A stretch of 63,334 nucleotides of DNA, counting the filler, from Reclinomonas americana ATCC 50394 (taxonomy: Eukaryota), in assembly GCA_048213135.1 (NCBI GenBank). It is 4 parts of 4 records of this genome, joined end to end, with 100 filler letters (N's around TTAATTAATTAA, not from the genome) between each part and the next. Parts side by side here need not be neighbours in the genome. Positions count along the whole stretch, not along the records: positions 1 to 20,001 come from PS015224.1; 3 more parts are not named here. The stretch is one strand, 5' to 3'. Every line of letters begins with the position of its first letter. Position 1 is the stretch's first letter. The translations under genes were made by a program, and so were the position numbers. Below are positions 6,352 to 62,531 of the stretch, in pieces. The notes below the pieces were generated by a model, which did no database searches, had not been told where the DNA came from, and worked only from the letters and a program-made list of their open reading frames with translations.

Positions 6352-7954
6352 ATGCGTCTGTGGCCGTGGCTCACACTGGCCCTCTGTGGCGCCACAGGTG
6401 TCAGCGCATCATGGCTGCACTCACACTTGCAGGTGCCTCTCTCTCACACTCCACATCTCTCAAGCTGGAGTTGTCGCACTGATTTGTTCACTCATGTTTG
6501 CTCAGCATCGCTGGGTGTTTCAACACGACACACCGCCACCACCACCACTCCCCTTGCCTGGAGTATCAATGATCCCTGCAGGCCCGCATGATCTGCACAC
6601 AGCACCTCTCAGTCATGTGTACATAAAGTCGTCGCACAACACCAGTGTGCGCACATGGCAGTTCTTTTCCGCGTGCTCTCTCGAGGCCATTCGACACGCA
6701 TTGACCACCTCACAGTGCCGATGCATTGAATGTGCGTGCGTGAATGTGCGCGTGTGTGTGTGATTGACGACTCTCACGTGATGACAGTGGATTTGTTTGA
6801 TGGTCCCGATGGTGAGCCGGTGTTGTCGCACGGGCGCACGACGGAGAGTGTGCGGTTGCGTGAGGCGTTGCATGTGATTCGCGATCATGCGTTCGAGCAC
6901 AGTCCGTGAGTGTGAGAGAGACACACACGCGCGCACAGCTATCCACCGCTCATGATCTTCTTTTTTGCGTAGTTTTGGTGTCATTCTCTCGCTCGACATT
7001 CGGTGCTCGGAGGAGCAGCAGAGGCGACTGGCGGGCATGCTGCGTGAGGTGTTGGGTGGTGAGTTGCTGTCCGTCGTCAGTTGAGGCCAATGATCCATCT
7101 GCTGACAAAGACGGTGCAGACAAGTTGGCGCCGCGCGACGAATGGCAATGGAATCGACAGCTGCCGACGATTGAGCAGATGCAGGGTGCGTGTCTCGAGC
7201 AGCAGAGGTAGACTGTGACTCCTCCAACTGACGTGGTGCATGCAGGTCGGTTCATTTTGGAGATGCCGGGGCCGGGGACGGTGCTGCGCGAGTACGCTTG
7301 GAGCACGCCGCCCGGATGCGTTGACATTGACGGGAATCCGTGGCGAGAGAGTTTTGTGCGAAACGAGTGGCTCGATTTTGTGGATCCTTTCGACGAGCGT
7401 GATCGGCCGCAACTGCGCATGCGGGAGCACCATCGACACAGTGGCATGTACGATCAGTTTCACCATCGCGAACTGGCACCAGAGCTCGTCGCCATGTGCC
7501 ACCTCTACTCGTATGCCAGCGCTGAGGCTGTGCTGTTGCGTCCCGAGGCCGTCAATCGGGTGCTCAATGTGAGCGAATCCGAGGCACTCGAGGAGGCCGG
7601 CAAGCTGCGCGCTTTTGAGCAACAACAACTGGGTGCCTCCAGCTCGTCCACGCCCGTCAGGTACGTGCCCCGTGCCTCACCGCTGCTCATTGGTTTGTTT
7701 CTCACTGTGGGGGAGAGACACGCAGACGGCTGGTGCGCGTGTATCCCGAGTATCATCGAGTGGCCTCCGACAATCCCAATCCGCAGCCACTGTGGGAGCA
7801 GCTCTTTGTGCAAATCGTCGCCATGAATGTGCAGCGACACGACAAGTGGCGCGAGGTACACGACCGCTTCTTCGCGCTCGGTGGTCTCAGAGCTCTCTCC
7901 GTGTCGCCACCGCCGCCACCACCACCGCCACCACCACCACCATCAACAAAATGA
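6352..7954 (+). CDS. Phosphoinositide-specific phospholipase C, X+Y catalytic domains only, with N-terminal signal/anchor
   Basis: X box PLSHVYIKSSHNT...CRCIE|LDLFDGPDGEPVLSHG...IRDHAF...VILSLD; Y box RVYPEYHRVASDNPNPQPLW...QIVAMNVQ. Hydrophobic N-terminus MRLWPWLTLALCGAT|AGVVALICSLMF. GT-AG introns. Confidence 0.85.
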
Positions 7955-7981
7955 ACTCAGTCCGTTTAATTGTTACCCTGC

Positions 7982-10874
7982 CTACAAAACTTGCCACTCG
8001 TCTGGTTCGTCGCCGCATGTCCACTGTTCTGCGTGTGCGTGCTCGTTGAGATCGTCGGCCTCCTCCAGCAACGGCGTCAATCCGGTGATCATCTCCAGCA
8101 CTCGCGGTCTGCGCGTGCATCGGTTGATGAACTCCGCGCCGCCGGTGCGCACGGCGTCGAGAACGTGCGACGAGCAGGCGATGCACTGCGAGTTGGCGGC
8201 GCCAACCATGGGCGTCAGGGAGAAGTCCTCCAGTGAACCGCGCAGCTCGTGCGGTACTTCGCCCATGGGGCTCGAATGTGACACGTCGCCAATCACATGC
8301 GGGCCGTGCGCCTGCGACGTGGCCGGCACCTGAGCACCGGCGCGGTGTCTGCGGGAAAGGGAAAATGAGAATGAGGGCGGAAGTAGTCGGCGTAGACTGG
8401 GAGCGCACCTGAGCGGATGATGCAGCATGTTGACCAGCAACTCTGCCGCCATGGCCGACACCACCATGGCACCTCCCGGGCGACTGACGGTGGCCTTTTG
8501 ATCCAGTGTCAGGTTGGACGACGGCTGCACACTACAAAGTGAACAACTGGAGTGCATCTCGTGCAGATCGTGGGTGGGGGGGGCAGCAACGCACAGGTCG
8601 AGGGGCCGATGGATCGGGGCAAAACCAGCAACCGAGCCGCTGATCGAGCGGCACACTGGGCGAGCCGTGACGCACGACCGTGTAGGAACTGTATCCGAGG
8701 CCCACCGTAATTGCAGCCTGTGCACGCAGTGGATGAGGGGAGGCACTCAAGAGGCACTGCGCACAAAAAAAAAAAAACGCACCTTGTCGTGGAGGGCGGC
8801 CATCACGGCCGGGAACCAGCGGGATTCTCGCGAATCCAACAACAAAAACACCACGTCCACCTCCTGCAAAAGCGCCCCAAATGTCTCCATGTCGCGCTTG
8901 GTGTTGGCCACGGGCACGCGCTCACCCAGGAGCGGGAAGGACATGTGGACGGATCTGACGTGCTGTGCATGCGTAGCAAAGAAATGAGAACCTCGGTGAT
9001 GCCGTGCTGCTCTATCTCTCTCTCTCTCTGCTCTCACTGCGCACCACGCTCGGCAAAATGTGCTCCANNNNNNNNNNNNNNNNNNNNACACCCGGCCCGA
9101 GTCCACAATCGTAAAGTGGCGGAAGCCCCAACCCTGTTCACTCTCGCGTGTGAGTGCACACAGTCCGGGTGTTCATCAAGGAAGTCATCAAGAAAACTCA
9201 CCAACAATGCGCGCGCCACATCGCATCCCAACGTGCCGACACCGACGAGCATGCAGCGTGTGGATGCAATCAGGTCCAAGTCCAGCTTGGGTGCCACACG
9301 CCAGCGCATCAGCGAGAGGTTGAGCACCGAGGCTCGACGGGCCATGCTGTGGGTACGAGTGACGGGTGAGTAGCGAGGCGAGTGAAAAAACAACGACAGT
9401 GTTGAGAAGAATGTCTTCACCTCTCTGGGTCGACCAGCAGACCGAGGTCGGTGGTCTGCGGCAACAACTCCCCATCACTGCTGCGTTCCCAGCCGACGCA
9501 GCGCACCGTCTCCTCACCGTCCTCGCTGCGCACTGGAATGGCCAACTGGAGGGTAAGGAGTCGCGAATGATGCAGTCCGTGCTCCGCATCGTGCCGCAGC
9601 GCCAGCAGCGTGAACGACAGAGTGGCAGGCAGGCTGCGTGCGATCGTGAGATGCGAGCCAAAACCCCCCCCCCCCCCCGACCGTAAAGAAAGCATGCGAC
9701 AAAAACCTGCGGTCGGTGAGCATGGGTTGCACTGCATCGAGGCACCAGTACAGCAAGTTCCGAGCCGGCCACCCGACACTGTCGGATCGAGCACACGGAT
9801 CGAGGACGCACACCAGCAGTGAACGTGGATCCACCACCAGTTCCACACCGTCACTCGTCTCTGTGCGATCGGCACAATCAGTGAGCTCATTGTCGTCGTC
9901 GCCATGCGCAACTGTGAGTGGCCTGAACGAGCATACCTCGCATGGTGCAGTGGTGACGGAAGAGGGCAGTGGACAACACCTCTGGATGTACGGCGCCAGA
10001 TGGGCCGGACTTGATGGCGAACGCGGCCAAGCTGTGCGCGTGCCTGTGGTGACGCAACCAGTTGCACACGGTCTCGACGTGGTGCGCGTTGTGAACATGC
10101 AAGGCGGTGGCCGTCGCCGGGACCTCATCGAGGAGCGAGGCGGAGGTGATGACAGCCGGCAGTGGCGTCACCAGTGCCGCATGCGCCGCCCAGTGCCAGT
10201 TCTTCTGCTTCTTGATGTCCATGTACACGAGCAGAATGAAGCCGTGCAACTGGGGGCCGTGCTCGGTGGCCTCCGCAGTCGCCCACTCGGCTCGCATGCG
10301 GCGCACAATCTCCTGCAGCATCGCCGCCTTGTCCACGTGCTTCATCGCCAGCTTGTTGTTGTAGACCATCACTGAGCCGCGCACCCACACAGCGTAGTCG
10401 CCGCCGAATGGCGTCGGCAGCGAGTCGGAGCGGCAGTCGAGCGCTCCACTCGGCACAAAGAGACGCGCCGGAGTCGATCCGTCGCCCACCTGCATTCCAT
10501 GCGAATAACAGAGCTCTGTTGTCGTTGTTGTCGCGTGTCCGGATTCGCTCTCATCCTCATCCGTGTCGGCTGTCGCGGTGGCGGCCGCTGCCGACGCCAG
10601 CGGAAGCGGAGTGAATGCTCGCTGACTCCACGAGTACAATGCCTGCCTCACGCGCGCACACACACACACACAACAAGCACAGTCAGCACATTGCCTGGAG
10701 TGGAGATTCCCTCACTGTGGACGCAACTCGCAACGGCAATGGTCCTTCGTCGGCGTGCAGCACATCCAACTTGGCCGTGGCGAGTTCCCACCAGAAAGCC
10801 GGGTCGATCACACAGTGCAGCGGCTCAAAACGCAAAAATGATGTCGACGACGATGATGATGATTCACTGGCCAT
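7982..10874 (-). CDS. ATG7: ATG7-like E1 enzyme (catalytic Cys replaced by Ala)
   Basis: N-domain LRFEPLHCVIDPAFWWELATAKLD; NLSLMRWRVAPKLDL; GVGTLGCDVARALL|GWG; FLLLDSRESRWFP; LGCWFC; TLDQKATVSRPG; ELLVNMLHHP; GEVPHELRGSL; CIACS. Small gap at 9068-9088. Confidence 0.9.
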
Positions 10875-11197
10875 GATCCGCGTCGCTGCATACAGGCATG
10901 AGAGAGCGTCAGTCACGCGAGCACACCCACCCACCCACCCACTTATGCACATATGCATATGTAACCGCACCAGCGCGCTTCACAAAGAAAGAGAGAGACG
11001 ACAAAAAGATGCGGTCCGGAGAATCTTCTCCCGGACGTCGACCGCACATCACGTGAGGGCGGGTGTACATCGAACCTTGCATTCATTCAGTGCAGACAAC
11101 AGAGTATAAAGAAAACAAGAGGTAAAAGAAGCGAATGCAAGCAGCATCTAAACAAAAAAATTCAAGAAAGGCACGATCGCGCACGACGTCGCTGCGA

Positions 11198-13922
11198 TCA
11201 GAGCTTGGATTGCGGATACAGCTGGCGGTAGCGACCGAGAGCCCAGATGGGGAAGATGTTGCGGTAGTTGGAGTAGCTGATCATGGCGTTGGCGTTGAAG
11301 ACGCCACTGATGCACTCTTGTGGGAAGTCGCCGTTCGGCAGCTGGCGCCGTCGCAGCAGCTGAATGCCGCGATCGATCGCCTTCTGGTCGGGATAGCCGG
11401 CAGCCATCAGCGCCAGGAGAGCCCATGATGTGTTGATTACCTGCGCCCACTCATTCTGCGAGTACTCCTTGACCACACACGACTGCGAGAAAGGAAATGC
11501 GTGTGTGAGACCAACTGGGAAAATGCTGGAGCTTACACGGGTGAGCGCAACTTCAAAGGTCTCGCCCCACCCGCCCGACTCCATCTGCTTGCCCACCAAA
11601 AAGTCGCACGCACTCTGCACATGCGGGCATTTCTCGTACGAACGACCGACGGCCACCAGAGCCTCGACGCCGAACCACGTGCCGTAGGTGAAGCACACAC
11701 CCCAGCTGCCGTACCAGCTGCCGTCGGCGCGCTGAATGCTCTCGATGAACTTGATTGCGCGCTCAATCGACTGCCGAATCTCGGCCTTGCGGTGATGCGG
11801 GAAGTCGTGCGCAAAGGCCAGCAGTGACTGCACCGACGCGCTCGTGCACTCGACATAAGGGTAGTCGATCATGATGTCGCCAAAGACCTCGGATGGGTTG
11901 CACAACTCGAGGATCTTCGAGCCGCGCATCAGCTCGTACGTCGCCCACCCTCCGCACTCGTTCTGCATCGACAGCGACACGTTGACGGCGTCGTACAGGC
12001 GTTCCTTCGGAATGGGGTTGGTGATGTACGGCAAGTGGCGCAGTTTGATGGCCGCCTTCAGACCCTCCGACGTGCAATCCGAGATCGGCCAACCTGCGCG
12101 TGTCGTGTCAGCACACCGCGGCGACCAAACTCGCACTCCATCCACTCACCGTGATCCTTGGTCGAGAAGGGCCAGGCGCCTTTGGAGATGTGTCGGAAGT
12201 ACTTGTCGAGCTGGTCCACATCCTCGTCGACTTGCGTAATATCAATGTAGTCGCTGGCACGCTGCAGCGTGTCGGCCACCTCCTCACCCAGGCCCGTATC
12301 GATAATGGCCTGCACGGCAAACGCCGTGTCCCACAGTTGTGAGCCATTGTAGCCCTGCATCTTCATGCCGTCGTCGGAGAGCCACAGGTAGTCTGCGGCA
12401 CGCACGAGTGTTAGGGACGAGGAGAGAGGAGAAGCGTATCGCGATTGTTGACGTTGCGCACCGTAGATACGCGGAATGTGCTTCGTGAATCTCTCGTCGT
12501 CGGGGCCAAAGGCGTAGTAGCAGCACAGCATGTTGCAGACCTTGTTGACGGGTCCAATGTCAATGTACTTTGTCGTCTTGTCCTCGTGCACAATGTGGTC
12601 GATGCACTCGTCGAGAGCGAGCTTGCGCACACGCGCCGAGTGCATTGGTTCGTACACGTTGAGCACGGCTGCGCGTGCCAGAGTGAGCATGCACACAAGA
12701 GGGAGGAGGCCTCGAAGAGAAACTCACCATTGGCGGTCTTCATCAGCCACGAGTGTGACTTGTAGAGATCGATCGGGTGGCAAAAGTTGCGCTGCGCCGG
12801 CCAGTCAATCTGATCGTATGGCATCGGGTACAACTCCTCGCGCAACGAGTCAATCAGTGGAGTGCGGCGACACTGAGATCGCGAACCGTAGATGTAGGCC
12901 TGTGTGCATACACACGGGATGAGCAGCCGAAGTGGAGAAGTAGCATCTCTCTGGCTCCCTCTTCCCCCCCACACACGCACCATGGGCAGATACACCACAC
13001 GGCAGTGGCACCACATGCGCGACGGATGGAACGGCAACCACGACGGCAACCACCACAGCTCCGGCGGCACGGGGTTCATGCCATGCCACTCGTACACACC
13101 GAGAGTGGCGAGCCAAAACTTGCCCCACGAGGGGATTCCGCACGCACCACCGTGCTCGTGCAGCCAGTGGCGTGCACGCATCGCACGTGGATCGTCCTTG
13201 TCCACTCCCAAAAGGCGCATCGACACGTAGTTGAGCGCAGTGCCAAACACGGTCGATCGGCCCTCGATGTGCCTGCCAGAGACGAGATGAGCGGGCAGGC
13301 GAGGACACGGGATAACGCATCGTCGCGCACGCAACAGTCCCCAGCCGCCATCCTCGCGCTGCTGGTTGCTCAAGTACCGAATCATCTCCCGCTTGTGCGG
13401 CTCCGGGAGCTCCACTTGTGCCGAGTAGCATGTGATCACCAAGCCTGACCGTGCACAATTTCATGAGAAGCCATGGCATTGACCAATCGCTCCCCTCTCC
13501 TCTCCAGCGACACGCACCTGGCAACAGGAACATGGGACCGCCATAGTCACCAGCCCAGTGGCCATCCTCGGTCTGAATGGTCGAGTAGAAGCGAATGGCG
13601 GCGCGCACAGACTCATCAGTCGAACCAAACACCGGCTCGGGATTCTCGTATCGAGAATGCGGATCATTCTGCGATCCATCATTCATCACACGCATAAGCA
13701 CATGCGTGTGACACCAACAGCCTCTATAACAGAGTGCGTGCATGTGTGTGTGTCTCTCTCTCACTTTCTCACGCATGTTTATCATGACGACGCAACACTC
13801 TTCTTCGACAGCAGATGCTCCTCGACTGTGCGATTCAGCTTCTGCGCCTGCTTCTCCACCACATAGTCCCACACTTGGCGACCACGGTCCACACTCAGCT
13901 GCCACAGTCCACCGTCTTGCAT
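11198..13922 (-). CDS. CAS1: Oxidosqualene cyclase with cycloartenol-synthase signature
   Basis: [97 protein letters not shown]. Confidence 0.93.
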
Positions 13923-41500: not shown

Positions 41501-43822
41501 AGCGCGTCTTCTCCCGGTGAGTAGTTCTCCAACACATCCAGCAGGCGCACAGCGTAGAGCGGAATCGACCGACGCATAGCCTGCAGCACGCGGCGTTCGT
41601 GCTCGAAGAGCGCTCGGTGTTGTCGATCAAACACTTTCACCACGACCTCCTGCGCATCGCGCACTCATCGTGTGAGTGTTTCACACCGCAAATCATAACA
41701 CCGGCAGCACTCAACTGGTTCATCCTCGACGCCGGACTGGCGCTTGGCTCGGAGCAAGCGAGCAGAGCCCGAAGACTCAGACAAGACGCCTGTCTGCCGG
41801 TACGGCACCACCGCCGCCGGAGCTTGGGCCGTGGGTGCCGCGACTGGTGCTGGCGGTGGTGCGGCCACTGGCACGTGTGGCGGAGCTGCGGGGGGTGGAG
41901 GTGCCACAGCAACAGGGGGCGGAGGTGCGATGACAGCGGCGGGCGGAGGTGCCACAGCAGCGGGGGCCGGAGGCGCGGTAAAAGCGGGAGGCGAGGAAGG
42001 AGGGACGACTNNNNNNNNNNNNNNNNNNNNNNNNNNNNNNNNNNNNNNNNNNNNNNNNNNNNNNNNNNNNNNNNNNNNNNNNNNNNNNNNNNNNNNNNNN
42101 NNNNNNNNNNNNNNNNNNNNNNNNNNNNNNNNNNNNNNNNNNNNNNNNNNNNNNNNNNNNNNNNNNNNNNNNNNNNNNNNNNNNNNNNNNNNNNNNNNNN
42201 NNNNNNNNNNNNNNNNNNNNNNNNNNNNNNNNNNNNNNNNNNNNNNNNNNNNNNNNNNNNNNNNNNNNNNNNNNNNNNNNNNNNNNNNNNNNNNNNNNNN
42301 NNNNNNNNNNNNNNNNNNNNNNNNNNNNNNNNNNNNNNNNNNNNNNNNNNNNNNNNNNNNNNNNNNNNNNNNNNNNNNNNNNNNNNNNNNNNNNNNNNNN
42401 NNNNNNNNNNNNNNNNNNNNNNNNNNNNNNNNNNNNNNNNNNNNNNNNNNNNNNNNNNNNNNNNNNNNNNNNNNNNNNNNNNNNNNNNNNNNNNNNNNNN
42501 NNNNNNNNNNNNNNNNNNNNNNNNNNNNNNNNNNGCAGCCGGGGGCGACACCGGAGCCGCAGAGGGTGGTTGCGACAAGGACACTGGAGCCACTTGGCGT
42601 GCTTCCGAAGCTACCGCGGCCGCCGCTGCATGGAGATGAATGTTAGTGAAGGTCATGTGGCGGGAGTCGACGATGTGAGGACGTACATGCGACGTGACGG
42701 CACATTTCGATCAGATCGGCCGCCAGCTGCGAGTATGTGTGTTGATCGCCGTACTTGTATTGCATGTAGGGCACCACGTCGGTGAGCAATCTGCGTGCAG
42801 ATGCGTAGTCGCCAGCCTTGACATGAACTTCGGCGGCATGCAACGCCGCCAGTATCGTCTCCTCGGCGCCGAAGCCGAGCGACTCTCGTGCATATACAAG
42901 GACTTCCATAGATTCGCGCTTGGCGTCCTCACAAGAGCACGACTCCGACTTGAACCGTGCGTAGGCTGCGAGCGGTCATCAAAGCTTGAGTGTCGAACGA
43001 CATTCCCGCGGTCATTATACACATTTAAATCACACACCGAGCGCATTGGACAGAGCAACGGCGTGCTCCGGCTGAGAGGCAAAGTTCTACAAGCAGCGCA
43101 AGTCAGCGTGTAAACAGGAGGTGCTGTGCGGTGCGACGACTTTGCCTTCCACGCTGCTGCATCACTCTCCACCAGCTCGTAGTCGCCGTTGCAGAGCTGC
43201 GCCTGGAGGCGAGCGACGACGGCAGAGAGTGTCAACTCGGCACGGCTGCCATAGGCTTGCTCGCTGAGGTCACGCGCACGTTTGGCGAGCGCCTCGGCCT
43301 TGTTCGTGTTGTTCAGCACCATGTGCGCCTCGGTGACCGACAGCAGCACCTGAGCGACCTCGTCCTTGGCCGTTCCGGCCAACTGCGACAGTAGCAACAA
43401 GAGAATTAGAGGAGACAAGAGGAGATGAGAGGCGCAGTAGTGGTGCAGACACGACGCACCTCGGTGAAATCGCCGATGAACTCATCGTCATACGCCTGCA
43501 GCACATCCTGATACTGAGCGCGACGGACTTCCACGCTAATGTCTTGATCGCGGGCAGCAGCCAACGCTGCTTCTCCCCAGTGATATCGCGCATTCAAAAC
43601 CTCATCCGGCTTGGCGTCGGACTTGCGATCCAGCAGCATGTAGGCGAAGCGGAAGTAGCGAGCGGCCTTGCGCCACTCGCGTGCATCCGCCGCTCTCTCT
43701 GCCGTTCGAATGTCTTTCTCCAGATCCAGTGACGAGCCTTCCTCTTCCATGCGACGCAGCTCGGGGTCCATGCCAGCGCCACCAAATGCCGGCGTGACGT
43801 GCCTGCGTAGCAGGTTGCCCAT
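38568..43822 (-). CDS. Multidomain protein: TPR-like repeats, Pro-rich linker, protein kinase, uncharacterised domain, PH domain
   Basis: Kinase VVVKVF...FEHE, WTDCKPAN, IDFD, WTPAY..PE, SDVWALG, MLVFDPLDRPT; PH WNDRFLVL...ELQAW; helical repeats (AEALAKRARDLSEQAYG; ARRLLTDVV...YGDQH). Continuity across gap 42011-42534 is assumed. Confidence 0.72.
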
Positions 43823-43870
43823 GCCTNNNNNNNNNNNNNNNNNNNNNNNNNNNNNNNNNNNNNNNNNNNN

Positions 43871-43882
43871 TTAATTAATTAA
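43871..43882. other. Artificial scaffold linker
   Basis: TTAATTAATTAA within N-runs. Confidence 0.95.
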
Positions 43883-43926
43883 NNNNNNNNNNNNNNNNNN
43901 NNNNNNNNNNNNNNNNNNNNNNNNNN

Positions 43927-46900
43927 TGCGTCCCCAGATGGATTCACGGTGCCCGCCAAGGTCGCTCCTATAAATGAGATCACAGCCACAGCATTGGTGG
44001 TGACCGACGGCATTGTTCTGGTGGTCAGCATCAAAATGTTGCCACGTTTCGACAATCCAGACACGGTGGCCACCACTCGGAACTCGTACGTCACTCCAGG
44101 CGCCAGGCCCGTGGCGACAGCCGACACTGGNNNNNNNNNNNNNNNNNNNNNNNNNNNNNNNNNNNNNNNNNNNNNNNNNNNNNNNNNNNNNNNNNNNNNN
44201 NNNNNNNNNNNNNNNNNNNNNNNNNNNNNNNNNNNNNNNNNNNNNNNNNNNNNNNNNNNNNNNNNNNNNNNNNNNNNNNNNNNNNNNNNNNNNNNNNNNN
44301 NNNNNNNNNNNNNNNNNNNNNNNNNNNNNNNNNNNNNNNNNNNNNNNNNNNNNNNNNNNNNNNNNNNNNNNNNNNNNNNNNNNNNNNNNNNNNNNNNNNN
44401 NNNNNNNNNNNNNNNNNNNNNNNNNNNNNNNNNNNNNNNNNNNNNNNNNNNNNNNNNNNNNNNNNNNNNNNNNNNNNNNNNNNNNNNNNNNNNNNNNNNN
44501 NNNNNNNNNNNNNNNNNNNNNNNNNNNNNNNNNNNNNNNNNNNNNNNNNNNNNNNNNNNNNNNNNNNNNNNNNNNNNNNNNNNNNNNNNNNNNNNNNNNN
44601 NNNNNNNNNNNNNNNNNNNNNNNNNNNNNNNNNNNNNNNNNNNNNNNNNNNNNNNNNNNNNNNNNNNNNNNNNNNNNNNNNNNNNNNNNNNNNNNNNNNN
44701 NNNNNNNNNNNNNNNNNNNNNNNNNNNNNNNNNNNNNNNNNNNNNNNNNNNNNNNNNNNNNNNNNNNNNNNNNNNNNNNNNNNNNNNNNNNNNNNNNNNN
44801 NNNNNNNNNNNNNNNNNNNNNNNNNNNNNNNNNNNNNNNNNNNNNNNNNNNNNNNNNNNNNNNNNNNNNNNNNNNNNNNNNNNNNNNNNNNNNNNNNNNN
44901 NNNNNNNNNNNNNNNNNNNNNNNNNNNNTATGTCAACAGAACCAGATACGGGCGCCGCTGGTGTCACAGTCGTGATGGTGTTGACGGACGTGGTCAGATC
45001 CGTCGCAATCTCAAACGACACTGTCACCGATCCACCTCCATTGGCATTCACAACACCGTTGAGCAGGGCCGACAGGTACGTGATGCTGCTGGCTGGGGAT
45101 GTCGTCGGCACTGGCGCAGTGAGCGTGGTGAATGATTGCGGGAGACCGCGGACAACGCCGCCACCAACAGTGGCCACGATTCGGAAATAGTAATCGGTGC
45201 CGCCCGACAACGCAGTAACGGTGGCACTGACGCTGACCGCAGCAACACCAGTGACAGGCGGCGGCGGAGCGACCATTGTCACCGTCGTCACTCCCGTCGA
45301 CAGCGTACTGTCCGTGGACAACTCAAACGACGGCGTGACATCCTCGCCACCGGCGGCAGCAATTGTGCCGTTGAGCACCGCACTCAGGAATGTGACCGCG
45401 GAGGCCGCCAGCGTGACGGGCACAGGTGCATTCAACGTCGTGAGTGCCTGTGGCGGCGCACTGGTCAGCGTCACGCCGGCCACCGTCGACAGCAGCCGGT
45501 AGTAGTACGTGGTGCTCGGCGCGAGTCCAGTCACTGCGATGGATACATTCTGCATCGCCGAGCCGGAGAACGGCGGCGCGGGAGAGATGTTTGACAGGGT
45601 CGAGACGCCCGTGGACATGGTCATGTCGGTGGAAATCTCAAACACCACAAACGACGTCGCGCCACCATTCAGCAGCAACACAGCCTGCAAAAGTGCACTC
45701 TGAAACGTCACTAGCGACGGCGCCACCGTCGTCAGCGACGGCACACCCAGCGTCTGCACCGACACAAAACTGCTGTCGACAACTGCGAGACCCATTGATA
45801 CTCCCTCGATGCGGTAATAGTACACCGTGTTGGGCGACAGGCCACTAATGGTGGCGGCAAGTGACGTGGGTCCCGCTGTAACATCGTCCGCCGGCGTGAG
45901 CGTCGTCACAACCGTGCCGGGAACGAATGACATGTTGGTAGAGTACACGAAAACGAGCGCAGTGACTGGGCCACCAACACCCGCCGTCACGACGGCGTTC
46001 AGTTGCGCACTCAGATGCGTCACGTCCAACGCTGCAGTGGTTCTCAATCTCGGGCCCGTGAGGGTCGTAAACGATACTGGCAAGCCATTGGTGGTGACTG
46101 CATTGGTGGTCAGTGCCACCACACGATACCAGTACGGTGTGCCTCCCTGCAGCGAGTCGATGCTGCCGGTGACGTTGGTGACGTCGCTGCCAGTCAGGAA
46201 ACCGGCCGGCGACACCGCGGTAACAGTGACGACACCCGAGCTGAATGTCATATCTGGCGCCACCTCGAATGACACCGCCGTCACGTAATCGTTGGCGTTG
46301 ACAGTGGCATGCAGAGTGGCAGAACGGAATGTCAAGTCAGAGGCCGCCAGTGTGATTGCCGTCGCGCCAGGCGGAGGACTGAGAGTGAGGAACGATGCAG
46401 GCGCGCTGGGAACCACTTCGCCGGCCACAGTGGCAAGCAGTCGAAAGTAGTACGTGGTGGCATGAGCGAGTCCCGTCAACGACAGCGACACCGTATTGGT
46501 GCTGGGGCCAGTAAAGGGACCGTCAGGAAGATTGACCACCACGGATCCGGCGAAGGAGGGGTCGGTCGAATATTCAAACGCCACGCTCACCGGATACAAG
46601 TCGTTGGCCGCAACATCACCGAAAACAGTGGCACTGTTGGTGGTGATCGACGACGACACATGGTTGTTGCACGTGGGCACATTCAGCGTCGTGAACGGCT
46701 CGACGGTGCTTCCCTGCATCAGTACGGTGCTTTGCAGTTCGGTGGCATCCATGCGGTAGTAATAGGTGGTCCCCGGCACGAGGCCCGTGAGAACCGCAGT
46801 CAGCGCCTGCGCACCGCTTCCACTGATCTGTCCGCTCGGATCGACCAGCGATTGCACCCGAGGCACCCACCAGCGTCGGCAGTGTGCCCCAAGTGAAGGC

Positions 46901-49900
46901 GCCGAGCACGGGCGATCCACCATTCGCGTCAACTGAACCGCGTACAGTCGCGTAAGAGAGGTGAGTGTCCACGCCGGGAGTCAGCGGTGTGGTGACGGCA
47001 ATTGGGTCGGCAGCGGAGACTGTCAGCTGGCCTCCCGGGATCGGCACAAAGATGCCGCCCGAGAGGAAGCCCATGCACGCAATGTACGACCCAGGCACAA
47101 TGCCCGTCAGATCGGCGGCCGGAAATGTCAATGTATGCGCTGCTGCCGGGCCACCGGCGTCGGTCATGCTTAGGCCCAGAACCGTAATCGACTGCGGTGA
47201 AGCTCCGGCCAGCGTGGGCGTGCAGACGTTGCCGGGTTCGAGCCGCAACATGGTAATGGCTCCGCGAACGAGATTCGGACCCGTCAGCACAAGTGTGGTC
47301 GTTGTGTCAGTGACGACATAGTAGGTTGGTGCGATGGACACGACACCTGTGTGTGGCGACGTGAGCGCACGACAGGAATGGAGTGGAGGAGATTATTGAT
47401 GAGCAGCAGGCACGCGCACCAATGCTGCAATCAGTGGCTCCGGTGAACTCGGGCGCACACAAGCAGCTGCCGGTGCCATTAAAGCCGTCGTCACACACGC
47501 CTCCGTTTTCGCAGCTGCACAACGATGCGCATCCGGGTCCGTACGAGCCGGCCGTGCACTGTGCCGGGGGAATGAGCAGCGCGCGATAATATAGAGTAGG
47601 GTTATCGGCGAGGTAGCGCAACATCAACCGTCAGCATGGTAGTCGTCGTCATAAATGTACCAACCGCACCCGCAACGTCGAAACACACGATAAAATCACC
47701 ATAGTCGGTAGTCGATGCATGAATTGTAGAGGTCACGGCGTTTGGAGTGACGGCGGTAGCGGTGGCTATTGTGGAATGCGCCGATGTGCAATCGGCTCCA
47801 GGTGCAGCGTCGACAAAGAATACGCTTTTGACACTCGCGCCTCTGTAAGGCCAAACAAGTCAACACTTGCTTCTCCATTTCTCCTCCTTTCCCTATTTCC
47901 ATTAATTCTAACCCTCCTTCCTCTATCTTCTTCCCCCTCCTTCCCCCCTCACTTCCCCTCCTTGTACATGCGCGTATTATCACTGCGGAGCAGACGCAAC
48001 TGCGGGCCGCCAATGTCGATCGAAAATGGCCCCACGCCAATGACAGAATTTGGAATCACCGAGTACGTGGCTGCCAAAGAACGAGCGATGAGCGTACAAC
48101 ATTGGGCAGCAAGGCAACAGTCGGTGATGAGGCACACCCGACACTGTCAGCAAGCCGGGAACATCGAAAGCAGCGCCCACCCCGCCGAATCTGCACGCAA
48201 TTCCATGAGCGCGATGACAATTCCAATAATCTTCCCATCAACCACTCAACTTGATACACATCTTGTAGGTCGAGCTAATGCCAGTGACAGTAATGGGCAC
48301 TGTCAGTGACGTGCTGACTGTCGACGATACCGCACCGACTGCGAGCTGCGATGCGCGAAAGGTTCGTCAGCAGGCATATAGAGGCCGATAATAAACAACA
48401 CGAGGGGCAGTACCGATGGGTCTGAGGCCACAGCTGTTGCGCAGGCGGCAGAGGAGTCAACGACGAGAATCGCATCGCTGGCTGATAGACCGTTGCCAGC
48501 AATAACCACCGCGATGCTGGCGCCAATCAGCAGCGAGGAAGGTGCAAACGAATCGGCCGACTGCACATCGCCAACTCATCAGTAACGAGCCAGGGGGAGA
48601 GCGCGATGAAGCAACACAGACTCGCCTCCGCAGTCAACACGCTTCCCGCAGTCACCGGGACAAAGGACGATGCAGTTGATGTTCTGCGCAGAACACAGAT
48701 CCGTGTCAGCAAGGGAGCGCGCAAGATCGCCAGGAGACACGGACGGGGTAGAGAATCGAAACTGGATGCACACAATGTAGAGTCCACCAGTGGAGATGGT
48801 GACAGGCACCTCCAAGCGAGTTGCAACAGGCAAGGTGAGTGCACCGACCGTCGTCGCACCCGAAGGCGGATCAGAGCAGGATCCGGGACTGGCGACGACT
48901 TTCACGGTGTCGCCCACTGCACAGCGATACGAGTAAGTCAGCAACTGAAAGGTGAGAAGCTGACATGTCTCGCACCAGTGAGTCCAACGCCGGTGATTGA
49001 CACGGTGGTGGCAGCGTTGGCGGGTACGGCAGTTGGAGAGAATCCAGTGGCGCCTGCGGCCAGAATACAGAGAGAAAACTGACGTCACGACGCACAATCC
49101 ATAGCTGCCTTTTTGCTCTTATTTCCAAACCTTGCACCGCAATCGTGCTGTTGACCACAGGCTGGAAGCCCGACGTGCCGCCGTACGAGATACAGAGCGA
49201 CACCGTCGTCGGCACCGTGGTCACAAGCTGCAACGTGAGCGTGTTGGGCACGCCAGCCGCGCTGTTGAGACTCGACGACACAGTAGTCACGGCGCTGTCG
49301 ACAGCACAGTTGTCTGACGGACGGATAATCTTGAACGTATCAAAGGCTGCGCGACCAAACGAAGCATAAGATGCTGGCAAGTGGGAAAAAACAGTGCAAA
49401 CGATCAGCACACCGCTGAGAGCCGCTCCGCTGACCACCACCAAGCTGGCGGATTGGTTGGGAATCAGCAGCGTGTCGACGCCAAATGTGCCTGTGGCATG
49501 GAAATGAACAAAAAAGTGTCTCCGCGTGCTGAATTCACAGCATGTACGCACCTCGCACGGCAATGGTTCGTGCACTGACACTGTCCATGTAAAACACCGC
49601 AGCACCGGAAAATCTGCAGCTCGATCGTAGCGGGTGGGTGACATGTTATGATGGGAGGATCAATACTCTTCAAGCAGACAACACACCGAATGCACACCAC
49701 ATAGTCGCCCGGTGTGACTGACAGTTGCGGAAGCACACTGAACGACAGGGTTGTCGATGCTGCGCCGCCAACTGTCTTGGTGCTTCCGATGGAAAACGCG
49801 GCAAGTGTCGATGCACTGCATGGATCGCTGGCCGCGTGGATCGTGATGACATCGTTGGCGGAGAAGCCAAAGCCAGTCAGCATCAGTGTCTGAACGGAGC

Positions 49901-53177: not shown

Positions 53178-56100
53178 TAGATAGAGAAAGTCGAAGGGAA
53201 ACGCACCACTAAGTGCTGCTCCATTCACAGTCATCGTGGTGGCCGTTGACACGGGTACGACTGTTGGAGTGATGCCCGTGGTTCCTGCGCCACGAGGTGA
53301 GAAAGGCACGCATCACATGCTTGCGAGAAAGCTAAGTTCTCACACGCACCGCGAACGGCAAACTGGACCGAGATGCCGCCTGGTATGGTGTAGAAACTGC
53401 TGGCAGTGGAAAAGCTGCAGCGGCGGGATTCAGCAGACGCACGCAAGAATCGGAGTGCGAGTCTGTGACGCACGTGATGCAAACCACATAGTTGCCGGTG
53501 CTGGACGCAATCGGCGTGACAACAAACGTCAGCTGCGTGCTTGTGGGGTTGGCAGCCAGCGAGCTCACTGTGATGCCAGCCACAGGCATGGTGCTGCACG
53601 GAGTCGCCAATGGCTGCACAGCGATAACGTCCGCATTCGAGAAGCCATATCCGGTAAGCGTCATGGTGCCGCCGGTTGGTGGCAAAAGGACGGTTGGCGA
53701 CAAGTTGGACGACAGTCCTTGCGCCGAGATGACGCCCACGTTGAAAGAGTCCGCGCCGGTTGTTCCCGTGAATCTGCAGGCGAGTATTGATGAGAGGGCG
53801 GGAAAGAATGAAAGAAAGAGTGTCGCGACCACGAAACTGGTAACACAAGTTGTATCGATTCATAGTGTTGACCGTCACGTTGACAGAGTACGCAGAGGCC
53901 GACGCGGAGGGTGAGGCCACGGTGGTGCCACCAGCAGCACCCATGACACACGCATCGGTTATTGGCACGAGCTTCACCATGTCGGATGCTTGCGCTCCAA
54001 TCACCGCCACAGATACTGCAGAGGCGATGAGAGTGTGTGTACACAAGCACTCATGTGCGCACATACCATTTATGGCCAGGGCCGCCGGAATGGTTGCGGG
54101 TGTGATGCTACTCTGGAGCAGTCACGAAAAAGGTGCCGGCGGTCACCGGGTACGTGCTCCCGGTGTTGCCGAAGCGAATGCACATCACGTATGCACCGAC
54201 CACCGTCGATGTCATGGACATGGTGAGATTCGTGGATGTGCCGCCGGGCGAGCTGAATGAAAAGCCTGTAGCCTGCGCTGTGTTGACGCAGTCGGGCGAC
54301 GAAGTGAACGGAATGCTTTTCAGCACATCGGCCGTGGTCAGGCTGGAGCGCACAGGGGGTGAGAGACGAGGGGGGAAGAAATGAAAGTACGCGCGCTTGT
54401 AGGTACTCACGCGACACCGCTGACAGTCACTGTGGTGCTGACGCCGGCAGAGATCTTGGTGGGACTGAAACTCGTGGTGCCTGTGAGGTGGGCGACAATG
54501 TGAGCGAGAGTCAGCGCGCCAGGTCACTGCATCAGCCCCACACACTCGCCTCGCACAGACAGCGTGGCTCCGCCGGTGACGGCGTATGGAACCATGGTGC
54601 CCATTCTGTGTGTGAGAGAACCCATCGTGTCACTAATCTTACGCTACAATCGATGACAATCCTGGCCAGCCCGCCCGCAACTTGACGCAAACAGTGAACA
54701 CGGCCACCGAAGTCGGCACCAGCGTGAACTGCTCGAGAGTACTGGTGGCACTCGTGGATGTGAGCACGGTGATGCTCACGTCGGAGGCAGAGGCCGCGTC
54801 ACACGAAGCCGCGCTGGGGATAATGTACAAGGTGTCGACGCCGAGAGTGCCGAGACCGTTGCCGGAGATGGCAATTGTGCTCAAGGCGTTGACGAGAATC
54901 ACGGAGGGAGACAGACCGGTTGCGCCGCTGTTTGTGCAGAGGAAAGGAGGGAGGGAGAGGGAGGGAGAGGACGAGAAGGAAGAGGGAANNNNNNNNNNNN
55001 NNNNNNNNNNNNNNNNNNNNNNNNNNNNNNNNNNNNNNNNNNNNNNNNNNNNNNNNNNNNNNNNNNNNNNNNNNNNNNNNNNNNNNNNNNNNNNNNNNNN
55101 NNNNNNNNNNNNNNNNNNNNNNNNNNNNNNNNNNNNNNNNNNNNNNNNNNNNNNNNNNNNNNNNNNNNNNNNNNNNNNNNNNNNNNNNNNNNNNNNNNNN
55201 NNNNNNNNNNNNNNNNNNNNNNNNNNNNNNNNNNNNNNNNNNNNNNNNNNNNNNNNNNNNNNNNNNNNNNNNNNNNNNNNNNNNNNNNNNNNNNNNNNNN
55301 NNNNNNNNNNNNNNNNNNNNNNNNNNNNNNNNNNNNNNNNNNNNNNNNNNNNNNNNNNNNNNNNNNNNNNNNNNNNNNNNNNNNNNNNNNNNNNNNNNNN
55401 NNNNNNNNNNNNNNNNNNNNNNNNNNNNNNNNNNNNNNNNNNNNNNNNNNNNNNNNNNNNNNNNNNNNNNNNNNNNNNNNNNNNNNNNNNNNNNNNNNNN
55501 NNNNNNNNNNNNNNNNNNNNNNNNNNNNNNNNNNNNNNNNNNNNNNNNNNNNNAGGGAGAAAGAAAGAGACGCAACACAAGGGAGACAGAGAGACAGAGA
55601 GGGAGAGAAGGAAGAGAAGGAAGAGAGAAGAGAGTGAAGATAGTGGAGATTGAAAGAGTGATAGACAGTGCAAGAGAGACACAGAGAAGGAGATAGGGAG
55701 AGAGAGGTGGAGAGAGACAGAAAGAGAGACAAAGAGACAGAGAGATAGAGAGGGAGAGAAAGAAGCCAAGAAAGGGAGACAGAGAGACAAAGAGACAGAG
55801 AGGAAGGGAGAAAGGGAAACACAGAAAAAGAAAGAGGGAGAGGGAGGCAGAGAGGGAGAGAACGAGAGAGACAAAGAGCCAGAGAGACAAAGAGACAAGA
55901 GAGAGAGAGAGATGTCAGTGTTGCCAGCTCATCGTACATGATCAGGGTAAGCGAGTACGCACGAAATGACAGTGATGCGGCGACTGATGGGCAACGACTG
56001 CACCGTGATGCGATCCACAAAGAACGTGCAGTCATTCGGCGCACCCGCACCCCCAATCGTCAGCGTGTACGTGTCAGTCGTCGTCACACCCAAACTGATG

Positions 56101-61497: not shown

Positions 61498-62531
61498 CTT
61501 GTACAAAATGGCGGCGGTGAGGAGAATCACGTCTGGGTCGTCGGCCACGCAGTACTCGAGGTGGGCGACGGCGGCGGGGAAGTCGTCGTTCTCGTACAGC
61601 GCCAGGGCTTGCAGTTTGTGGATCTGCGGGAAGGGGGAAGGCGGAGGGTGAGGGGAGGGACGGGAAGGGGAAGAGGGGTGAGGGGAGGAGAGCGACAGTA
61701 AAGCGGGATGAAAGCAACAGCGAAGCACAAGGAGAGCGACAGCGCAGCGGGAGGCGAGCGATAGCGCAGCGCGAAGAGAGCGACAGCGAAGCGGGAAGGA
61801 GAGCGACAGCGAAGCGGGAAGGGGAGCGACAGCGAAGCGGAAGGGGAGCGACAGCGAAGCGGAAGGGGAGCGACAGCGAAGCGGGAGAGAAAGTGACAGC
61901 GAAGAAAAGGAGAGCGACAGCGAAGCGGGAGGAGAGCGACAGCGAAGCGGGAGGAGAGCGACAGCGAAGCGGGAGGAGAGCGACAGCGAAGCGGGAGGAG
62001 AGCGACAGCGAAGCGGGAGGAGAGCGACAGCGAAGCGGGAGGAGAGCGACAGCGAAGCGGGAGGAGAGCGACAGCGAAGCGGGAGGAGAGCGACAGCGAA
62101 GCGGGAGGGGAGCGACAGCGAAGCGGGAGGAGAGCGACAGCGAAGCGGAAGGAGAGCGACAGCGAAGCGGAAGGAGAGCGACAGCGAAGCGGGAGGAGAG
62201 CGACATCGCAGAGAAAGGGGAGCGACAGCGAAGCGGGAGAGAGAGCGACAGCGAAGCAAAAGGGGAGCGACAGCGCAGCGTCAGAAAGAAAGTGTCCCAA
62301 GCTTCCCTTGTGCCAATCCCTTCCCCTCCGAGACGCAACTCGCTGCGAGTACTCGGGCTTGTCGATCGCATTGCAGGTCTTGATGCACTCGGCGTAGAGG
62401 GCAGCCTTGTGCAGCGCCTGTGCGTAGTACACCTTGTACTCTTCCACGTCGGGGTAGTACTTGAGGAGCTCCTCGTAGCAGCCGGAGGCGGACACGAAGT
62501 CCTCAATCATGTAGTAGCAATAGCCGAGGAG
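61498..62531 (-). CDS. IFT70: Intraflagellar transport protein 70 (TTC30/fleer/DYF-1), two internal exons
   Basis: LLGYCYY..EDF..A..CYEEL...YP.VEEYKVYYAQAL.KA..Y (62340-62531) and KLQA...YE.DD...DPD......ILYK (61498-61623). Confidence 0.88.
61690..62281. repeat. 22-bp tandem minisatellite in an IFT70 intron
   Basis: Unit GCGACAGCGAAGCGGGAGGAGA, roughly 25 copies; perfect in the centre, degenerate at the edges. Confidence 0.92.

Follow-up and report, generated by a model that had tools for sequence, protein, structure and literature searches.

An ATG7 homologue of Reclinomonas americana with alanine at the position of the thioester cysteine

Introduction

The active-site cysteine in the E1-type protein ATG7 is regarded as indispensable for both autophagy conjugation systems. 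According to the parts of the cited papers available to us, this residue is C507 in yeast Atg7 (PMC13434597) and C572 in human ATG7 (PMC13712035; PMC11864663). Roles of ATG7 that are independent of its E1 activity have so far been described in mammals only, as stated in the accessible part of PMC13712035. Components of the pathway are missing from some protists: the sections of the surveys available to us list ATG5, ATG7 and ATG8 as missing in one ciliate and the whole ATG12 system as missing in piroplasms, and in Apicomplexa the ATG12 system is non-covalent or lost, according to the available text of PMC11764061. A natural ATG7 without the catalytic cysteine was not found in a search of the accessible full texts of papers (supplements excluded). 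The present study concerns an ATG7 gene in a stretch of 63,334 bases from Reclinomonas americana ATCC 50394 (assembly GCA_048213135.1), which consists of four parts of this genome joined end to end and is called the window below. The gene lies on the minus strand of the part taken from PS015224.1, and it encodes alanine at the position of the thioester cysteine.

Results

Alanine at the catalytic position

An initial annotation of this DNA had placed an alanine codon at the thioester position of ATG7, and this was borne out by alignment with yeast structures and with library homologues.

8492-8494, minus strand: codon GCC (alanine) at the E1 thioester cysteine position; the plus strand reads GGC

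The translation of exon 9 (8524-8409) includes NLTLDQKATVSRPG. With this 38-residue exon as a phmmer query against all PDB chains, only yeast Atg7 chains were matched (7 distinct sequences), and residues 4-35 aligned with them gap-free at E = 2e-4 to 7e-4. The alanine faces the C of TLDQMCTVTRPG in 3vh3, 3t7e, 4gsk, 4gsl, 3vh1 and 3vh2, that is, the cysteine of the yeast motif T-L-D-Q-M-C-T-V-T-R-P-G, and 3rui_A carries serine in the catalytic column of the same alignment. The gap-free alignment of the motif, which had first been made with a human sequence, holds against the yeast PDB chains, and it holds equally against 91 library homologues. GCC and TGC differ in two of their three bases, in agreement with the earlier statement that at least two substitutions are needed.

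The spliced window protein was aligned with 91 matches of 580-1100 amino acids using MAFFT, and the catalytic column contains cysteine in all 91 of these full-length homologues. They came from a phmmer survey of 1.84 billion cluster representatives with the 180-residue translation of 8524-7985 as a query, which reads through the in-frame intron 9 and so includes 20 intron-encoded residues. The survey gave 715 matches at E <= 1e-3, and the best 150 of the 715 were inspected for the catalytic motif. Cysteine occupies the site in 137 of the 137 motif-bearing sequences among these 150; 129 were recognised by a strict pattern, 4 by a looser pattern and 4 by BLAST with exon 9. No motif region was seen in the remaining 13, of which eleven are fragments of 113-160 amino acids that were checked by the two patterns only; for the other two, P0117 and P0122, no alignment with the catalytic motif was obtained. 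The residue that defines thioester formation in the E1 class is thus alanine in the window protein.

The loop from the second cysteine of the first CxxC pair to the catalytic column has the length found in homologues and aligns without gaps. The alignment shows no further cysteine between the first CxxC and T-V-S-R-P-G of the window ATG7, and on this evidence the crossover loop holds no nearby cysteine that could occupy the active site, a point on which the initial annotation had made its reading depend. In the C-terminal half of the protein, only two cysteines are uncommon in homologues: the tail has one, and the other, in the C-terminal domain, is shared by 10% of the remaining sequences. 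Scanning all 63,334 bases for motifs in six frames revealed a single T-V-S-R-P-G / L-D-Q site and no D-Q-x-C-T, hence no second catalytic exon. Likewise, tblastn gave no ATG7 high-scoring segment pair (HSP) beyond 7900-11000 in the window, hence no second copy there.

Relatives were also sought in other collections. Word-indexed protein searches with exon 2 and with 7985-8524 gave no match at E <= 1e-3. Little weight attaches to this outcome, since the 8524-7985 piece had 715 matches in phmmer. No relative was found with a protein query in metagenome and prokaryote-genome contigs. A degenerate DNA pattern for the alanine-bearing motif L-D-Q-x-A-T-V-S/T-R-P-G matched 2 + 2 times in the same contig sets, none of them in an ATG7. 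These four matches were rejected as due to chance, since each either lies in a frame other than that of the motif or is interrupted by stop codons.

Gene model and coding integrity

The ATG7 gene has 10 exons and runs from 10874 to 7982. Exon boundaries were assigned manually on genomic DNA, guided by GT..AG sites and an uninterrupted reading frame, and the exons are as follows.

10716-10874, minus strand: exon 1; ATG at 10874-10872 and start of the ATG7_N domain; the donor GTGAGG comes next
9937-10642, minus strand: exon 2; N-terminal domain, to which tblastn HSPs of full-length homologues map
9707-9860, minus strand: exon 3; N-terminal domain, flanked by introns of 76 nucleotides (before) and 73 nucleotides (after)
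9421-9633, minus strand: exon 4; last part of the N-terminal domain, and linker, with the conserved G-W-E columns present
9202-9346, minus strand: exon 5; beginning of the adenylation domain, including GVGTLG at 9226-9243
9045-9133, minus strand: exon 6; contains a 20-N assembly gap at 9068-9087
8783-8962, minus strand: exon 7; D-S-R-E-S-R-W, with RESRW at 8816-8830 (motif scan)
8595-8717, minus strand: exon 8; first CxxC pair at 8619-8630 and first half of the crossover loop
8409-8524, minus strand: exon 9; remaining half of the crossover loop, catalytic position and start of the T-V-S-R-P-G helix
7982-8348, minus strand: exon 10; C-terminal domain, second CxxC at 8174-8185, tail at 7985-8029 and stop codon TAG at 7982-7984

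All nine introns begin with GT, end with CAG and measure 60-82 nucleotides. The translation on the two sides of the gap comprises 474 + 268 residues, and these 742 scorable codons contain no internal stop. Together with the nine intact splice-site pairs, this gives the sequence the look of an intact gene rather than the decaying one against which the initial annotation had cautioned. When full-length library homologues of 600 amino acids or more were used as tblastn queries against the window, the exon order was collinear with that of full-length ATG7s, with HSPs from 10838 down to 8006. The best stretches of the phmmer matches map to exon 10, which retains P, C and C at invariant columns. GC content at third codon positions (GC3) is 0.76-0.78, compared with 0.47-0.50 at second positions and 0.55 in introns, which is a coding-type signature.

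Intron 8 (8594-8525) is a 70-nucleotide GT..AG intron and corresponds to the junction at which the initial annotation had divided its motif alignment. Intron 9 (8349-8408) is 60 nucleotides long, in frame and free of stops, so that its retention would add 20 residues and cause no truncation. The ATG7 protein spliced across intron 9 aligns gap-free with homologues. Long G and T homopolymers are present in introns 3 and 7. The gap at 9068-9087 consists of 20 N, compared with about 30 residues missing relative to homologues; as 20 N are too short for these residues, the gap is a placeholder and its true size is not given by the N count.

Retained domains and motifs

The initial annotation had listed an N-terminal domain, GxGxxG, D.RESRW and both CxxC motifs as retained, and each was recovered in our analysis. 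The ATG7-specific N-terminal domain ATG7_N (Pfam PF16420) is spread collinearly over exons 1-4, which cover profile positions 1-35, 65-196, 211-241 and 250-306 of 309. Exon 2 scores over the 27-bit cut-off (E = 8.6e-11, 42.4 bits). As single pieces the other three fall under it, namely exon 1 (53 amino acids; E = 2.8e-5, 24.3 bits), exon 3 (23.5 bits) and exon 4 (24 bits). The 48-residue piece encoded by exon 5 gives a weak ThiF match at positions 5-39 (19.5 bits against a cut-off of 28.1 bits). The ThiF-type domain has both the glycine motif and D.RE.RW, and the invariant columns of the adenylation domain in comparison with the 91 ATG7s (G, G, T, L, G, R, L, D, R and W) are all present.

Over the whole alignment, 22 of the 23 columns that are invariant across the 91 homologues are preserved, and the single loss is the catalytic cysteine. 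The preserved set includes G-x-G-T-L-G, an R, D-x-R-E-x-R-W, a G, another R and both CxxC pairs, and in addition the D of L-D-Q, a T, the R of T-V-x-R-P-G and a P. The four CxxC columns contain cysteine in all 91 homologues and in the window protein, so that two complete pairs are present; in the yeast structures, the four cysteines form a metal site. The C-terminal tail, which in ATG7 enzymes is acidic and aromatic and recruits ATG8, here has an acidic run, two tryptophans and a hydrophobic end, and when compared by eye its character is like that of homologue tails.

Sequence divergence

Identity of the window protein to library homologues over trimmed columns is 33% at the median and 40% at best. 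The alignment has 99 columns conserved in at least 90% of sequences, of which 10 lie in the assembly gap and 89 can be scored. The window protein matches 78 of these 89 and deviates at 11. In exon 7, the P-M-x-G-H columns show H->E and M->L, where H is found in 88 of the 91 others. In exon 8, the residue between the first CxxC cysteines is changed from Y to W, which occurs in 1 of the 91 others. The crossover loop carries two further rare changes, S->P (1/91 others) and R->L (3/91 others), and a P where 89/91 have D or N. Three prolines have been added in the catalytic loop in total. Deviations at 6 of 19 loop columns are the highest number among the 92 sequences, the runner-up having 5.

Control gene and neighbouring genes

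An exon of an oxidosqualene cyclase gene (11201-12145, minus strand) served as a control and was aligned with 112 homologues. In this exon, 29 of 29 invariant columns are intact, as are 81 of 82 columns conserved in at least 95% and 109 of 114 conserved in at least 90% of sequences, and GC3 is 0.79. Because of this conservation, base quality near the ATG7 gene looks good and the lineage does not appear to be wildly divergent in general.

The cyclase exon has its sole deviation among the columns at 95% or above at 11285-11287 (minus strand), where alanine (GCC) stands in place of a cysteine carried by 109 of 113 aligned sequences. Conserved cysteine columns are intact at 6 of 7 sites in ATG7 and at 5 of 6 in the cyclase. 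A general cysteine-to-alanine trend or artefact was considered and rejected, since 11 of the 13 conserved cysteine columns across both genes are intact.

The whole cyclase gene (11201-13460, minus strand) is oxidosqualene/cycloartenol-synthase-like, and an atlas look-up of its control exon informed at family level only. Identity to its best library match is 64%, and it falls to 55-57% for the next named matches, which come from a jakobid, dictyostelids and Acanthamoeba. Judging from sequence comparison, the source organism is without a close relative in the protein library, which accounts for the lack of an ATG7 orthologue above about 40% identity.

The neighbours of ATG7 in the window are genes for PI-PLC, the sterol cyclase, a JmjC protein, RMI1, an ABC transporter and a kinase. 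A Pfam search revealed no other autophagy gene among 85 of the 95 open reading frames (ORFs) of at least 200 amino acids in the window, the 10 ORFs that overlap ATG7 being excluded. Rfam and tRNA scans of the window gave no matches. A tandem array at 61683-62280 has 27 copies of a 22-nucleotide unit with 88% matches. Two AT-rich islands (42001-46000 and 54001-56000) have a GC content of 0.37-0.41, compared with about 0.58 elsewhere, and contain ORFs in many frames. An ORF of 1033 amino acids at 43882-46980 (minus strand) shows repeated weak matches to fn3, PhoD_N and purple-acid-phosphatase-N.

Discussion

Our analysis confirmed that the gene is an ATG7 homologue that looks intact and has no thioester cysteine. 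The protein is probably unable to function in the canonical manner. The explanation that we favour, with moderate confidence, is that the nuclear genome of this poorly sampled eukaryote carries a real and intact gene for an ATG7 homologue, which has been kept by selection and whose product is unable to form the thioester. The two changes in the key codon, the preservation of 22 of 23 invariant columns, the open frame and the intact splice sites argue against a simple error and against neutral decay.

The protein is predicted to fold as ATG7 and to bind zinc and ATP. An ATG8-type protein could be taken up through the C-terminal tail and the adenylation pocket, and it may still be adenylated. 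The cysteine normally forms the E1 thioester with ATG8 or ATG12, a step that would not be possible with alanine, and therefore no canonical charging of ATG3 or ATG10 would take place. The resulting role would be that of a thioester-dead pseudo-E1. Such a protein might have a binding or regulatory function, as partner or competitor of a canonical ATG7 whose gene lies elsewhere in the genome or, if it is the sole copy, it might belong to a conjugation pathway that no longer uses an E1 cysteine. A role as a scaffold or regulator is an inference, and heterodimers or a rewired conjugation, both raised in the initial annotation, are likewise possibilities. That annotation had proposed an adenylation-only or scaffold pseudo-E1. 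The proposal is supported in part, in that an ATG7 homologue that looks intact and has no thioester cysteine is present; adenylation by it is a possibility, ten conserved columns of that domain being hidden in the assembly gap.

Several observations weigh against the favoured explanation. The alanine call depends on one draft assembly, with a 20-N gap within ATG7 itself. The ten hidden columns (S, N, P, R, Q, L, D, K, A and A) belong to the stretch S-N-P-x-R-Q..D..K..AA of the adenylation domain, so that adenylation competence is putative. For the other sequences, the number of deviations at conserved columns has a median of 2, a mean of 3.0 and a highest value of 14, and 96.7% of them have fewer than the 11 of the window protein; its terminal branch in a FastTree phylogeny is 1.45, where the median is 0.76 and the longest branch 1.60. 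Relaxed constraint would be compatible with this overall outlier pattern as well. Changes are not significantly more frequent in the loop than in the remainder of the protein (Fisher p = 0.38, 0.21 and 0.59 for the three thresholds used). Relaxation specific to the loop, which was considered as an explanation, is therefore not claimed and was dropped (p = 0.21-0.59). Moreover, engineered Atg7 cysteine mutants are said to be inactive in conjugation, and a function of the window ATG7 must therefore be postulated.

An error of assembly or consensus, or an allele that is private to the sequenced strain or heterozygous in it, would mean that the working ATG7 has cysteine at this codon. The draft state of the assembly, the 20 Ns in the gene and the homopolymers of introns 3 and 7 are in line with such an error, and the invariance of the cysteine in all other sequences examined makes any exception suspect. 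However, two adjacent base changes would be needed, the codon lies about 570 nucleotides away from the gap, and the neighbouring cyclase exon is intact at all of its invariant columns. A point error also cannot explain the further loop changes Y->W, S->P, R->L and D/N->P, and we regard this explanation as unlikely. An error in the gene model, by which the true mRNA has a cysteine-supplying exon or splice site, has a starting point in the hand-made definition of the exons from genomic DNA. It is very improbable, since the chosen junctions give a gap-free loop of homologue length, and neither the six-frame scan of the window nor tblastn outside 7900-11000 shows an alternative. The gene might also be a functionless relic that is drifting towards loss and is open by chance, in a lineage that has abandoned ATG8/ATG12 conjugation. 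The deviating columns and the long branch are in line with a relic, other positions that hardly vary have changed (for example, the H of P-M-x-G-H to E), and the losses in a ciliate and in piroplasms mentioned above, as far as the available texts describe them, show that autophagy genes can be absent from protists. Against this, no stop or frameshift has arisen in the 742 scorable codons, the nine splice-site pairs are intact, and the invariant columns and the GC3 signature are preserved. If drift had lasted long enough for two hits in a single codon, damage to further invariant sites or to the reading frame would be expected as well, and it is quite unlikely that the gene is a relic.

A further explanation is that this protein is the sole ATG7 and is productive, the ATG8 adenylate being attacked directly by the ATG3 cysteine or by another nucleophile with no E1 thioester. 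MoeB/ThiF-type E1-like enzymes pass on an acyl-adenylate without an enzyme thioester, which counts in favour of such a reaction. The features that a working enzyme needs appear to be present, namely nucleotide binding, the zinc site, the N-terminal (E2-binding) domain and the tail, and the catalytic loop has been remodelled with its added prolines. On the other hand, the adenylation site is partly hidden in the gap. Engineered Atg7 without the cysteine reportedly fails to support conjugation in yeast. Accelerated divergence is not expected of a sole essential enzyme either, and it fits a paralogue or altered constraint better. To our knowledge, duplicates of ATG7 are rare. The part of a ciliate survey available to us gives one ATG7 gene per species. 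Productive action of a sole ATG7 by direct attack on the adenylate is doubtful, and no more probable is the version in which ATG8 lipidation works and an E2 cysteine or a relocated nucleophile (for example, the unique cysteine of the mobile tail) takes the acyl group from the adenylate.

If the favoured explanation of a selection-kept natural ATG7 without the cysteine is true, the protein might represent the autophagy pathway's first pseudo-E1, and it would provide a handle on the E1-independent roles of ATG7. Alternatively, activation of ATG8 could run without the E1 thioester, and with a sole ATG7 nature would then offer an E1 reaction in which the canonical E1 thioester plays no part.

In comparison with canonical ATG7 (yeast Atg7, PDB 3VH1-3VH4 and 4GSK/4GSL, and human ATG7), the window protein has the same order of ATG7_N, a ThiF-type domain and a C-terminal domain with a tail, and GxGTLG, D.RE.RW, two CxxC and TV.RPG are common to both. 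It differs from canonical ATG7 in the alanine that replaces cysteine, in the rare substitutions of the crossover loop and in its long branch. As an E1 enzyme, canonical ATG7 is a homodimer to whose N-terminal domain ATG3/ATG10 bind, and ATG8/ATG12 are the proteins it activates. The rewiring of the pathway in Apicomplexa (PMC11764061, in its accessible part) is a precedent for the evolutionary loss of 'universal' covalent ATG steps. However, ATG7, ATG3 and ATG8 were detected there in all species, and loss of the ATG7 cysteine is not reported in the available text of PMC11764061. Engineered Atg7 mutants, the serine-bearing 3RUI_A and C507S, likewise are without the catalytic cysteine in an ATG7 context, and C507S has been used to trap an ester (PMC13434597, available part). 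In contrast to these laboratory constructs, the alanine of the window protein is natural, non-nucleophilic and accompanied by other changes in the loop. MoeB/ThiF-type enzymes and the silent E1 subunits NAE1/APPBP1 and SAE1 function without a thioester cysteine of their own, as dimer partners, and the Rossmann-type E1 fold family is common to them and the window protein, as indicated by the weak ThiF match. All of these belong to families other than ATG7, and the silent E1 subunits have lost nucleotide binding as well. Unlike these subunits, the window ATG7 keeps the glycine motif.

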